Source: Heptranchias perlo
Taxonomy: Eukaryota
Direction of reading: 5' to 3'
Assembly: GCF_035084215.1 (NCBI RefSeq)
Contig: NC_090370.1
Coordinates: 3,410,001 to 3,474,000, forward strand
DNA: 64,000 nt
Made by a program: the position numbers and the translations under genes
In this document: positions 48,901 through 54,900 of the stretch, piece after piece
How the letters are laid out: the number at the start of each line of letters is the position of its first letter
Numbering within the stretch: the first letter of the stretch is position 1
Notes under the pieces: generated by a model
Told to the model about the DNA's origin: nothing
What the model saw: the letters and a program-made list of their open reading frames with translations, nothing else
Databases searched by the model: none

Positions 48901-51900
48901 GACAACACTGATGCTCTTTAAGCTCCTATTGATGGTTTTTTGGTTATCTTCAACAGCTACTATTGAAACCTGTTCTGAGCAGGAATCGGTTTCTTCAGCC
49001 AGTGAGTACATACAGGCTGAATATGAACCCAACAGTGCCAATAAGATGGAGCTTTTGGCTGCTACTGACTTGCATGATCCTGATCTTCAGCTTCCATCTC
49101 CCCAAATCACCATCAGCAATCATTCTCCATCCCTACTGTCTGCTTCTGTGCTATCCATTGTCCAGCCTCCTTTAGAGTGCTCTCTATCTTCTCCTATCCC
49201 TGTTTCTGCTGAGGTGCCCTCTTCACTTACTGCTGGCTCCACCACTGATCAACCACCTTTATCTGCTGACTGTACTGATGCTGTTGATGGGGTACTTTCA
49301 CCTGACCTGGTTGCTGCTTTTCCCACTGACTCAGTAGCTGCCAGGTCTGATTTGTCTCCATCTGATGGTATTACTGCTATATCTTCAAACACTGAAATAG
49401 ATTCTGACTTGAGACTGTCCCCATCTGACCATATTACTGTTGCCACTGCTATCCCTGCCTACACTGCTACTACGAGTGTAACTTCAGCTGATGCAGTTGA
49501 TGGCCCTGCCAATGATCAGCTGCCCTTGCCCACTGACACTCCAGCTGCCCTTTTGATGCACAATCAGCATTGGGCTGATCTGGAGTCAACTGCTGTTTTG
49601 CCTGGGTCTGTGAAGGATACTGATGTCACCCCTGATGGTCTTCTATCTTGTGACCGTATTGTTACTACTGTCATGCCCTCTGCTGCTGCAGTTGCTGTTG
49701 ATCAGCTGTGTTCACTCACTGACACTTTTGTTTCCTCCACCAATGATGGGCAGCCATTGAATGATACAGTTGCCATCCAAGGAGGGCTGTCTTCAGACAG
49801 TATTACTGTTGCTAGCATGCTGTTGCCTGCTAATACTGTTGCTGCTGATGGTCCACCTTCATTTGCCCCTGTTACTTCTGTTGTGGCTTTGTCTACTAAC
49901 TCAGTTACTGCCACTATTTGTCAGCTGCCTTCATCCGCTGACCCTGTTTTTGCTGACGATGGGCTTCCTTTATCTGCTGACTCTGTTACTACCAACTCTG
50001 GATTTTCTCCATGTGACAGTATTGCTACCAGTGCTGTGGTTGCTGCCCCTGCCTTTCAACTGCCTTCATCCAGTGATCCCCTAGTTGCCTCTGCTGTGGA
50101 CATTAAGATTTTGGCTGATATAGTTGCTGAAACTACTGCCACTGCACCTCTGCCCAATGATGCTATTGCTGCTCCTGATGGACTGTCTTTACCTGACAGT
50201 ATTACTGCAGCCATAGACCCTTCGCCCGCTGAGGCGGTTGCCGCCGATGTTGCTGATCAGCCCGCTGAGGCGGTTGCCGCCGATGTTGCTGATCAGCCCG
50301 CTGAGGCGGTTGCCGCCGATGTTGCTGATCAGCCCGCTGAGGCGGTTGCCGCCGATGTTGCTGATCAGCCCGCTGAGGCGGTTGCCGCCGATGTTGCTGA
50401 TCAGCCCGCTGAGGCGGTTGCCGCCGATGTTGCTGATCAGCCCGCTGAGGCGGTTGCCGCCGATGTTGCTGATCAGCCCGCTGAGGCGGTTGCCGCCGAC
50501 GTTGCTGATCAGCCCGCTGAGGCGGTTGCCGCCGACGTTGCTGATCAGCCCGCTGAGGCGGTTGCCGCCGACGTTGCTGATCAGCCCGCTGAGGCGGTTG
50601 CCGCCGACGTGGCTGATCAGCCCCCTTCGCCCGCTGCCGCCGACGTTGCTGATCAGCCCGCTGAGGCGGTTGCCGCCGACATTGCTGATCAGCCCCCTTC
50701 GCCCACTGGGGCGGTTGCCGACGTTACTGATCAGCCCGCTGGGGCGGTTGCCGACGTTACTGATCAGCCCCCTTCGCCCGCTGAGGCGGTTGCCGACGTT
50801 ACTGATCAGCCCCCTTCGCCCGCTGAGGCGGTTGCCGGCGTTACTGATCAGCCCGCTGAGGCGGTTGCCGGCGTTACTGATCAGCCCGCTGAGGCGGTTG
50901 CCGGCGTTACTGATCAGCCCGCTGAGGCGGTTGCCGGCGTTACTGATCAGCCCGCTGAGGCGGTTGCCGGCGTTACTGATCAGCCCGCTGAGGCGGTTGC
51001 CGGCGTTACTGATCAGCCCGCTGAGGCGGTTGCCGGCGTTACTGATCAGCCCGCTGAGGCGGTTGCCGGCGTTACTGATCAGCCCGCTGAGGCGGTTGCC
51101 GACGTGACTGATCAGCCCCCTTCGCCCGCTGCCGACGTTACTGATCATCCAGCCGAGGCGGTTGCCGACGTTACTGATCATCCAGCCGAGGCGGTTGCCG
51201 GCGTTACTGATCATCCAGCCGAGGCGGTTGCCGGCGTTACTGATCATCCAGCCGAGGCGGTTGCCGGCGTTACTGATCATCCCGCCGAGGCGGTTGCCGG
51301 CGTTACTGATCATCCCGCCGAGGCGGTTGCCGACGTTACTGATCATCCCGCCGAGGCGGTTGCCGGCGTTACTGATCATCCCGCCGAGGCGGTTGCCGAC
51401 GTTACTGATCATCCCGCCGAGGCGGTTGCCGACGTTACTGATCATCCCGCCGAGGCGGTTGCCGACGTTACTGATCATCCCGCCGAGGCGGTTGCCGACG
51501 TTACTGATCATCCCGCCGAGGCGGTTGCCGACGTTACTGATCATCCCGCCGAGGCGGTTGCCGACGTCACTGATCATCCCGCCGAGGCGGTTGCCGACGT
51601 CACTGATCATCCCGCCGAGGCGGTTGCCGACGTCACTGATCAACCCGCCGAGGCGGTTGCCGACGTCACTGATCATGCCGCCGAGGCGGTTGCCGACGTC
51701 ACTGATCATGCCGCCGAGGCGGTTGCCGACGTCACTGATCATGCCGCCGAGGCGGTTGCCGACGTCACTGATCATGCCGCCGAGGCGGTTGCCGACGTCA
51801 CTGATCATGCCGCCGAGGCGGTTGCCGACGTCACTGATCATGCCGCCGAGGCGGTTGCCGACGTCACTGATCATGCCGCCGAGGCGGTTGCCGACGTCAC

Positions 51901-54900
51901 TGATCATGCCGCCGAGGCGGTTGCCGACGTCACTGATCATGCCGCCGAGGCGGTTGCCGACGTCACTGATCATGCCGCCGAGGCGGTTGCCGACGTCACT
52001 GATCATGCCGCCGAGGCGGTTGCCGACGTCACTGATCATGCCGCCGAGGCGGTTGCCGACGTCACTGATCATGCCGCCGAGGCGGTTGCCGACGTCACTG
52101 ATCATGCCGCCGAGGCGGTTGCCGACGTCACTGATCATGCCGCCGAGGCGGTTGCCGACGTCACTGATCATGCCGCCGAGGCGGTTGCCGACGTCACTGA
52201 TCATGCCGCCGAGGCGGTTGCCGACGTCACTGATCATGCCGCCGAGGCGGTTGCCGTCGTCACTGATCATGCCGCCGAGGCGGTTGCCGTCGTCACTGAT
52301 CAGCCCGCCGAGGCGGTTGCCGTCGTCACTGATCAGCCCGCCGAGGCGGTTGCCGTCGTCACTGATCAGCCCGCCGAGGCGGTTGCCGTCGTCACTGATC
52401 AGCCCGCCGAGGCGGTTGCCGTCGTCACTGATCAGCCCGCCGAGGCGGTTGCCGTCGTCACTGATCAGCCCGCCGAGGCGGTTGCCGTCGTCACTGATCA
52501 GCCCGCCGAGGCGGTTGCCGTCGTCACTGATCAGCCCGCCGAGGCGGTTGCCGTCGTCACTGATCAGCCCGCCGAGGCGGTTGCCGTCGTCACTGATCAG
52601 CCCGCCGAGGCGGTTGCCGTCGTCACTGATCAGCCCGCCGAGGCGGTTGCCGTCGTCACTGATCAGCCCGCCGAGGCGGTTGCCGTCGTCACTGATCAGC
52701 CCGCCGAGGCGGTTGCCGTCGTCACTGATCAGCCCGCCGAGGCGGTTGCCGTCGTCACTGATCAGCCCGCCGAGGCGGTTGCCGTCGTCACTGATCAGCC
52801 CGCCGAGGCGGTTGCCGTCGTCACTGATCAGCCCGCCGAGGCGGTTGCCGTCGTCACTGATCAGCCCGCCGAGGCGGTTGCCGTCGTCACTGATCAGCCC
52901 GCCGAGGCGGTTGCTGATGCATCTGACGGACTGTCTTCATTTGACTGTATTACTGACACTAATGTACATTCACTTGTTGACTCTGCTGCCATTGTAGTTG
53001 ATCAGCTGACTTTGTCTGCTGTTCCATTCACTATCGACAAGCAGCCTTCGTATGATCCTATGGCTGTTGATAGTCTGCTCTTATCTGCCCCTAATATTGC
53101 CACACTGTCTCTGCCTGCTGACACAGTTGCTCTCTCTGGGCTGTCTTTACCTCAAACTGTGGCTGATGTCACAGCTACTGTACCTTTGTCCACCGATCCC
53201 ATTGCTGCCAGTGCCACTGATGGACCGCTTTCAGCAGACAGCCCTCCAATTGCCCCCATTGGTACCGCTGACTCGCCAGTGTCAGCTAATCCTCTGATCG
53301 TTGCAGTGGATGACTTATCAGCTGGCCCTCTAGTTGTTACCCCTCTGGCAACTGATCCACAAGTTGTTGTACCTATGTGTACTACTGAACTATCTTCAGC
53401 CACTGCTGCAACTGTTGAGTCACAATTGTCCACTCCCCCTGTAGTTCTTGTTGATTTTTCTATGCACCTCGACTCTCTCTGTGCTGATATGCCTGCTATT
53501 GAGCAGACACTGACTATAGTCCCACCTGTTCAACAACTTCAGTCTCCTGACCTGCCTGCTTCAGAGCTACATCCCCTTGTCATTCAGCTTACTTCATCTG
53601 ACCAAGTTGTTCCTAGTACTGACTTGCTTCTATCTCTTGACCCTTCTGTTAATGCACAGCTTCAGCCTCCCCTGCACGTTTCTACCAAGCTGCCTTCCTC
53701 TCTGCCTATTGCTGATTATTCACCTCATGAAACGCCTTCATCCACTAAACTTTCTTTATCTTCAGAATCTAGAGCACCTGTCACTGAATTTCCATCATCT
53801 CTCACTCTTCCATCTGCCTCTGTTCAACTCACTACCCCATCCCCTGAATCATCTTCAGCTGCCCAAATTGATGATGATGATGATGAGATGCCGTCTTTGA
53901 TTTCTGCTGTCGACGAGACTCCCCTCCGCGAAGCTCCTGCCCCACCTGTTATTGAGAAGGCAATTCCCAAGACTGCTCCAACTGGAAAGGAGCCTGTGGT
54001 GAAGCAGAATGATGAGGGTATTTAGTTTGGTTGAGGTGTGCATGTAGTAGTGTCCTGCCTAGTTGAGCTGTGCACCTGCATTAAACTTGGGAAGTAAAGG
54101 CTTGTCCTATTCAAGTTCATATTTAGGAGAGGCTAACTTTTAAGTGAAGCACTTGGACTCTGTGGAGGAGTGTGACTTATTGGAATATATTTGTCATGTC
54201 CTCCAGAATGAATAGAGCAGCTTAAAGTTAGCCTGTCCTTTTGGACAGGAAAATTGTGTGGTTTGAAATCTGTACTTTATGTAAAGTATGTAGCTGAGAA
54301 TTCCTTGAAAAAGCTAATATGAGCAATGCCAAATATTACATGTCCTCTTACAATTTATCAAATGCATCAATTGTCTTTGGTAGTCTACCTTGGTTTGAGG
54401 AATTGCTGTCTCTTTTGGAACAGGTCAATAGGCATAATGTACAAATTTCAACTGTGTCCACAAGGTGTTTAGAGCTTGTGTACTAATGGCAGTGTGGAGT
54501 CCATCTTTGTTTCTTCACTATTTATTTCACAAGTAGCGGGGACTTAACACTTGAGTGAACTGGTTTTGACTAGGTTAGTAGTACACTAATCTGTATTAAC
54601 ATCTTGCCTCACATGCTAAAACTGGCCTGCGTACCTCAGCCTGTGAATATTTGCAGCACACTGGTTCTGTTAATATATATAAAAAATTCTAATGAGGACT
54701 GTTGTGTATTCTTCATACCCGAACCTTGGGGCAAACTTCTGAACTGTCATTTTGTCCTTCAGAGTTTGCTTATATTTTAAAACCCAGATTGTCTTGCAAT
54801 TTTGTGTTTGCCTATTTTCTGCACACAGGATGAGCATTGCAGGTATGAATCCGGAGAATTGAAACCACCTGTATATGTTGGCGTGTTGTCTGGTACCAAG

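Follow-up and report, generated by a model that had tools for sequence, protein, structure and literature searches.

What is kept, and what is left free, in a coding exon that runs to 5061 nt, encodes hardly any basic residue and is filled in its middle by tandem repeats? The question is raised by a stretch of 64,000 nt from the shark Heptranchias perlo (assembly GCF_035084215.1, contig NC_090370.1, positions 3,410,001 to 3,474,000 of the forward strand; hereafter the window, numbered from its first letter), where a giant exon of the gene NACA, of the type that turns alphaNAC into its long form skNAC, lies at 48957..54017 on the plus strand. We consider it likely that in elasmobranchs this exon encodes a long, mostly disordered acidic spacer whose length is free, and that its middle is probably an exitron, that is, an in-frame intron within a coding exon.

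The giant exon and its repeat array

A pyrimidine tract and AG stand ahead of the exon and GT follows it, and a single stop-free frame of 1686 full codons, in phase 1 at both ends, runs through it; these features bear out an earlier sequence-only reading, made from the letters of the window and their open reading frames (ORFs), which had proposed an in-frame exon of this extent. Its placement at the position of the mammalian skNAC exon also stands, as the exon map and the synteny with PRIM1 put it downstream of the first coding exon and ahead of the constitutive body of NACA, and not of NACAD. In total, the exon encodes 15 Lys or Arg residues (0.9%) and a net charge of -286 (-0.17 per residue), and its longest run free of Lys and Arg is 977 aa. 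Two unique flanks, the N-flank of 422 aa (48959..50224, plus strand, -0.11 per residue) and the C-flank of 366 aa (52919..54016, plus strand, -0.10 per residue, predicted unstructured), enclose a coding tandem array of 898 aa (50225..52918, plus strand) made of 79 units of 33, 36 or 42 nt. The composition of this array (A282, V176, D126, E76, P71, T67, Q45, H34, G15, S5, I1, K0, R0) agrees with the central array of about 900 residues without Lys or Arg, and with the residues listed for it, in the sequence-only reading; its net charge is -202, or -0.225 per residue.

The units, of which 63 have 11 aa, 13 have 12 and 3 have 14 (all of them multiples of 3 nt), sit in homogeneous blocks. Because sets of 18 and 17 units are identical, the exact copy number is open to mis-assembly and could be wrong in the present contig. 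The array is rich in CpG, with an observed/expected ratio of 1.23, where the two flanks have 0.08 and 0.31 and the window as a whole 0.38; this suggests either a recent expansion or an absence of methylation decay. Other reading frames of the array (one stop-free frame on the minus strand, and a plus-strand +1 frame with one stop) were dismissed as by-products of the repeat, as frame 0 alone connects the splice sites.

Length, charge and constraint across species

A search with the C-flank (7999 candidates scored) matched 12 proteins, all of them shark or ray NACA isoforms, and an exhaustive profile-free scan gave three clusters, every one elasmobranch. With cluster members included, long NACA isoforms are annotated in 13 named elasmobranch species; in three of these, the records bear the name 'muscle-specific form' or are orthologues of records that do. 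The RefSeq long isoforms of sharks and rays (for example XP_041036149, XP_038642314, XP_062894020 and XP_032871646) are direct orthologues, with alignable flanks (N-flank identity of 45-68% to 12 orthologue models), the same cassette exons upstream, an equally acidic composition poor in Lys and Arg and, in 8 of 12, a repeat core in the same place. The window differs from them by its longer exon, by its run free of Lys and Arg (at most 513 aa in 10 records), and by a Pro-free block and a PSLIS motif found in the window only. In a tree of the C-flank (14 rows), the window groups with five shark rows against eight batoids (support 100/100), and in the N-flank tree it branches between galeomorph sharks and batoids; such a placement suggests a squalomorph shark.

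Exon length in elasmobranchs ranges from 663 aa to the 1686 aa of the window, the longest. In the 12 other species whose models cover most of the exon, the core between the alignable flanks is absent (0 aa) from the stingrays Hemitrygon and Hypanus and from both devil rays (Mobula), and it measures 114 aa in Carcharodon, 189-390 aa in skates and sawfish and 595-820 aa in bamboo shark and catsharks, against 898 aa in the window. Exon length is therefore not conserved, contrary to what the sequence-only reading had supposed. The flanks carry -0.089 to -0.124 per residue in all 12 species, including the four without an array, and acidity is thus independent of the repeat. Nor did the claim of an unrelated repeat unit survive, since the 11-mer of the window matches both catshark cores (z of 4.6 and 4.9 above composition shuffles); it bears no significant resemblance to the cores of five other elasmobranchs, two amphibians and two mammals. 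We infer that the unit derives from an old shark seed, which would have been re-amplified in each lineage. Mean identity to seven orthologues is 0.64-0.85 at the exon ends and 0.25-0.49 elsewhere. Internal deletions in isoforms of Pristis, Amblyraja, Scyliorhinus and frog lie within repeats, and were set aside as possible mapping artefacts. Met30 of the exon (49046) is conserved and is the start of the models for both Scyliorhinus species, a Leucoraja model starting at a later Met; the models may begin there because the sequence is interrupted upstream, or Met30 may be a start of its own.

How far does such an acidic insert extend beyond elasmobranchs? The best 120 of 693 matches and a Mobula record were reduced to 75 named records (leaving out four records without name, NACAD-like paralogues, redundant isoforms and partial records), of which 74 inserts were measured, one bichir model having no anchor. 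Net charge per residue is -0.116 to -0.152 in five shark records, -0.103 to -0.127 in five rays, -0.060 to -0.109 in amphibians (6/6 acidic), -0.015 to -0.028 in seven snakes (inserts of 882-1024 aa), +0.011 to +0.042 in 40 placentals, and +0.021 in one marsupial; nine ray-finned records, several of them hypothetical or fused models, spread from -0.064 to +0.042, a lamprey record of unsure orthology is at -0.096, and five eel and tarpon isoforms are at -0.16 to -0.20. The most strongly charged 400-aa segment reaches -0.255 here and -0.20 in a frog, whereas in three mammals it lies between +0.07 and +0.10. The acidic insert is hence no shark peculiarity: that of the caecilian Geotrypetes has 2014 aa, 2.1% Lys plus Arg and -0.109 per residue. 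As for a filler rebuilt with opposite charge, the sign is indeed opposite to that of mammals and the exon body has no significant alignment to mouse (best BLASTP E=0.11), but the acidity does not stem from the repeat. Shark and mammal do differ in sign, yet this contrast is one end of a gradient. On the records compared, we infer an acidic insert as the more parsimonious ancestral state, the weakly basic mammalian insert being probably derived. Long isoforms of chimaera, coelacanth, lungfish, bird and zebrafish were not among the best 120 of 693 or the best 120 of 201 matches, which is not evidence of absence, and no published comparison of skNAC charge or repeats across vertebrates was found in a search outside which most subscription papers lay.

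Mouse skNAC (NACA exon 3, 2187 aa, P70670) shares with the window the gene, the insertion point, an in-frame giant exon with central repeats, a homologous C-terminal block (acidic run, P-x-L-I, P-K, exon end) and the retained NAC and UBA domains. It differs in its charge (+0.033 per residue against -0.17), its Lys plus Arg content (9.7% against 0.9%), its unalignable body and its motif (PPLIP against PSLIS), and the window has in addition two upstream cassettes and the candidate internal exitron. Amphibian skNAC (Geotrypetes XP_033795246, Mixophyes, Hyla) has, as in the window, an acidic, repeat-bearing insert and small upstream cassettes resembling exons A and B (homology by eye only), whereas its repeat units are different and its PPLIP is intact. 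In human NACA, a coding variable number tandem repeat (VNTR) of 69 bp x 18 is described as lying in frame in the skNAC exon and varying in length, with a length variant linked to atrial fibrillation (bioRxiv 10.1101/848366). Both are in-frame skNAC repeats, with a unit of 23 aa in human against 11, 12 or 14 aa in the window; polymorphism and the link to atrial fibrillation are reported for the human repeat.

Is the exon constrained as protein? Neutral simulation over the shark-ray path length predicts about 18 stop codons, and the orthologue models have none, though such models are ascertained for open frames. In a polarised test (223 changes, 403 ungapped columns, six species), Pro was gained 36 times against about 13 expected (p<2e-7), aromatic residues 11 times against 23-25 (p 0.001-0.007), and Lys or Arg five times against 12-15 (p 0.005-0.03). 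This supports a coding constraint for disorder together with a modest avoidance of Lys and Arg; the selection on spacer length or disorder suggested earlier thus holds for a disorder-type composition and fails for length. The AlphaFold model of the C-flank has a mean predicted local distance difference test score (pLDDT) of 40 and no secondary structure. Selection for acidity, which was favoured by a one-way simulation (D+E of 0.114-0.136 against simulated maxima of 0.107-0.113), was rejected, as that simulation takes the window as starting state and the polarised test did not confirm it.

The candidate exitron, the motif block and rival readings

The segment 49002..53765 (plus strand, 4764 nt, in frame) is a candidate exitron, with donor GTGAGT and acceptor TTCTTTATCTTCAG. 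This donor is the only GTRAG within the 5061-nt exon and fits the full consensus from +1 to +6, the acceptor at 53765/53766 has the tied-best pyrimidine tract of the exon, and both are in phase 1. Joining 49001 to 53766 gives a junction identical to that of Hemitrygon isoform X3, and keeps a 5' segment of 45 nt (48957..49001, plus strand, mean identity of 0.85 to seven orthologues) and a 3' segment of 252 nt with the motif block (53766..54017, plus strand, identity of 0.73-0.82 to seven orthologues); with exon B included, the predicted mini form is an ORF of 347 aa. The length of the segment is a multiple of three, and the products are open whether it is retained or removed. Hemitrygon (344 aa) and both Mobula (357 aa) have short RefSeq models that begin and end like the exon, down to its last 84 residues, and lack its middle; in these three species spliced and retained forms both exist as predicted models. 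The donor peptide is identical in 9/9 covering models and the acceptor peptide pattern occurs in 12/13, with mean identities to seven orthologues of 0.77 and 0.64 just inside the exitron ends. Several mammalian short models also lack the exon middle, with different junctions, and a 376-aa Microcaecilia model lacks it like the predicted short form of the window.

Exitrons are described as lying inside coding exons and having very weak splice sites (Marquez et al. 2015, as reviewed in PMC5602073). The segment resembles those covered by that review in being internal to a coding exon, a multiple of three, probably disordered as a product and retained in the main annotation, and differs from them by its 4.8 kb and its consensus-looking splice sites, its spliced and retained mRNAs being predicted from the models of three rays. 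On this pattern, the middle 4764 nt probably constitute an exitron, which the sequence-only reading had overlooked together with the two cassettes. No description of a NACA exitron was found in the literature searched (most subscription papers being outside it), and none of the 25 inverted-repeat pairs listed out of 52 brackets the exon or the exitron.

The 3' segment carries an acidic run with PSLIS (53870..53905, plus strand), homologous to the SMYD1-binding PPLIP of mouse, and Lys1671 (53969..53971, plus strand), located 24 residues past the motif Leu, where mouse K1975 is 23 past L1952. The Pro and Leu of the motif and the P-K 24 residues on are invariant in 13/13 aligned rows. Mouse skNAC is reported to bind the MYND domain of SMYD1 via PXLXP and to be methylated at K1975 (PMC10340688, PMC6837996, PMC4372598), the first Pro and the Leu docking in the MYND groove (PMC6837996); both of these residues are retained in the window. 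The 13 elasmobranch species read PPLIS in eight cases and PPLIP in five, PXLXP is present in all snake, amphibian and mammal records, and 6/9 ray-finned records have no match to it in their last 140 residues. Homology of the block to the end of mammalian exon 3 is seen in all compared tails and ranks first in a combined search, the pairwise BLASTP of window against mouse alone being not significant (E=0.48). The C-terminal motif announced as conserved is therefore homologous as a block and altered as a motif. Since PXLXP reads PSLIS, the shark protein is not classed as a proven SMYD1 ligand, and SMYD1 binding is not to be assumed.

Several points weigh against a disordered acidic spacer with an internal exitron. 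All orthologues are predicted RefSeq models and hence ascertained for an intact ORF, those of 3/13 species begin at an internal Met, and Cetorhinus covers the C-flank only. Gains (9) and losses (18) of Asp or Glu do not differ from neutral, which gives no sign of selection on acidity as such, and the low gains of basic and aromatic residues could reflect a generic preference for conservative changes. The model of the C-flank draws on 13 sequences, short exitron-type models occur in 3/13 species, all of them myliobatoid rays, and both Mobula X2 models use the acceptor of the window with a donor 14 codons further on that the window lacks. To this are added the motif that departs from PXLXP and a Pro-free block modelled as a helical hairpin, given which the array may not be wholly disordered.

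Other explanations fare less well. If the retained ends were two small exons (45 and 252 nt) of the real muscle isoform, and the 4764 nt an ordinary intron that is sometimes retained, the giant protein would be minor or absent; this would account for a full-consensus donor and an acceptor among the best of the exon where exitron sites are described as very weak, for retained ends that are the most conserved parts, for the short models of three rays, and for the 4/13 species without a full-length model. It is nevertheless unlikely. In the models of 12 species, whose flanks are about 46-67% identical, the frame stays open for 660-1550 aa although some 18 stops would be expected; moreover, every one of the 79 units has a length divisible by 3 nt, substitutions show a bias in the amino acids that they produce, and conservation reaches 33 and 82 codons into the interval. 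The sequence-only reading taken as a whole, with size conserved, filler swapped for an unrelated repeat of opposite charge, and selection on spacer length, is very improbable: the 1686 aa of the exon are near the 1972 aa of the mouse insert, the two bodies do not align, and the strongest 400-aa segments are opposite in sign to those of three mammals, but it is contradicted by the elasmobranch range of 663-1686 aa (array-free in 4/12), the 882-1024 aa of snakes, the flanks that are acidic without repeat, the six acidic amphibians and the unit common to catsharks. The escape that short ray exons are collapsed arrays is argued against by the agreement of models from four separate species.

Could the array be partly structured instead? 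The Pro-free block of 11-mers (51677..52303, plus strand, 209 aa, with an amphipathic 11/3 pattern and in this species only among those seen) might form an amphipathic (hendecad) helical hairpin, a rod or a lipid-binding element. AlphaFold models it as a hairpin with pLDDT 97-98, its 11-mer has a helical moment of 0.42 against 0.21 when shuffled (p=0.024), and it matches the apolipoprotein family PF01442 (E 6e-7), a family assignment that was rejected, the 29.8 bits being below the Pfam gathering cutoff of 90. A structured element remains improbable even so, since the model is a single-sequence one of part of the array, a perfect repeat, with no control, a fold search against the PDB gave nothing at E<=0.001, no Pro-free run exceeds 62 aa in nine other elasmobranch records, one C-to-G change per unit created the block, and each unit combines three acidic residues with an absence of Lys and Arg. 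The block is rather seen as a species-specific by-product with little chance of a function. Its closest fold by TM-score is the flounder type I antifreeze protein 4ke2 (0.85 on target, E=0.013). Type I antifreeze proteins are mostly Ala in composition; an antifreeze function was discarded given this E value, a unit with 4/11 Ala and its acidic residues, and no sequence match, and the likeness was judged coincidental, the two sharing an 11-residue Ala-rich geometry and the isoform being cytosolic.

Possible role, gene context and other features

What would a disordered acidic spacer do? By analogy with mammals, the exon would most likely be included in striated muscle, inclusion placing a spacer poor in Lys and Arg within the N-terminal arm of alphaNAC, itself acidic already, and the protein, with NAC and UBA intact, would still be a ribosome-associated chaperone. 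The first ~47 and last ~165 residues, with a degenerate SMYD1-type docking motif and an invariant Lys nearby, would be constrained, and the middle would be a permissive site in which stretches of the acidic sequence present there have expanded time and again into coding tandem repeats of lineage-specific length, a turnover that may be tolerated as in the human 69-bp VNTR. Selection would keep the frame open, favour Pro and avoid aromatic and basic residues, leaving length free. If the internal sites are used as ray models predict, the gene would give three products, namely alphaNAC with 215 aa, a mini form of ~347 aa and a giant form that reaches 1994 aa, the last two sharing the motif block; the polyanionic disordered spacer would lengthen the alphaNAC arm, and the short docking block would adjoin the NAC domain. 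The alphaNAC arm is held to be auto-inhibitory, a role of which the literature search gave no confirmation.

Published work offers some bearings for such a role. The N-terminal region of alphaNAC is described as net negative, and the basic N-terminus of betaNAC as binding the ribosome (PMC6527867). Mouse skNAC is reported to co-localise with ribosomes at Z-disks and to be required for heart and muscle integrity (bioRxiv 2025.10.23.684272), its inclusion depending on Rbm24 and Rbm20 (bioRxiv 2025.10.23.684272, PMC7532667), and a review suggests that Smyd1b may be recruited to nascent myosin by skNAC (PMC5795982). The mapped skNAC functions found concern only the last ~50 residues (PMC10340688).

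A wider proposal, which we hold tentatively and as less probable than its negation, is that the giant exon in its ancestral form already encoded an acidic spacer and contained the exitron, and that jawed vertebrates switch between mini and giant skNAC by internal splicing, thereby tuning the engagement of alphaNAC. If this were true, the giant form would add the motif block and a polyanionic arm whose charge reaches -300, and the mini form the motif block only, arm switching would tune the contact of alphaNAC with ribosomes or sarcomeric clients, the charge would later have changed sign in mammals and the SMYD1 motif have become looser in most sharks, and natural variants (0-900 repeat residues, -0.17 to +0.04 per residue) would be a series for testing a 2000-aa insert. 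That insert length and charge sign vary across vertebrates, with the ends and the disorder-type composition fixed, narrows the possible role, and a short isoform keeping the ends only would separate the function of the motif from that of the spacer. NACA, the repeat of the skNAC exon and elasmobranch long isoforms were already known, and the value here is a comparative insight and not a new system; of what is added, the mini isoform is among the most testable points, together with the natural series of lengths and charges.

The remainder of NACA is on the plus strand. The first coding exon (39850..39919, ATG to donor, with an ORF check) is 100% identical to residues 1-23 of a Carcharodon isoform. 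It is followed by the small acidic cassette exon A (42214..42390, 177 nt, phase 1-1, with a tandem acceptor at 42217), which has 90% identity to residues 24-82 of Carcharodon X2 and is alternative, because Carcharodon X3 lacks it, and by the small cassette exon B (47062..47160, 99 nt, phase 1-1, 89% to Carcharodon residues 83-118). Constitutive exons encoding the NAC and UBA domains and the stop (55353-55438, 57354-57431, 58027-58173, 58842-58970, 60458-60580 and 60840-60854) have 93-100% identity to the Carcharodon orthologue, on which a Pfam scan found NAC and UBA_HYPK. In a splice check on the window, including all alternative exons gave the 1994-aa ORF, and skipping the giant exon and both cassettes gave the 215-aa alphaNAC. 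PRIM1 exons lie upstream at 9980-22902, also on the plus strand. Cassettes resembling A and B by eye occur in caecilian, frogs and snakes, and none in the mouse record; near the end of exon 55353-55438, a His (55433-55435) stands where the sharks and rays compared have Gln. The 500 nt downstream of the giant exon hold four GTGTG (0.8 expected) and one TGCATG, which is at most suggestive of inclusion in skeletal and cardiac muscle, and exon B is followed by three ACTAAC-type motifs (0.2 expected in 500 nt).

Elsewhere, an Rfam scan of the whole window gave 0 matches at the gathering score, and four stop-free stretches of 150-165 codons (31682-32131 and 24420-24899 on the plus strand, 18809-19261 and 26730-27224 on the minus strand) had no match in a Pfam search. 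The intron between cassettes A and B contains an inverted repeat (45440-45541, 50 nt, 94% complementary, with a 2-nt loop) that is probably the remnant of a mobile element.

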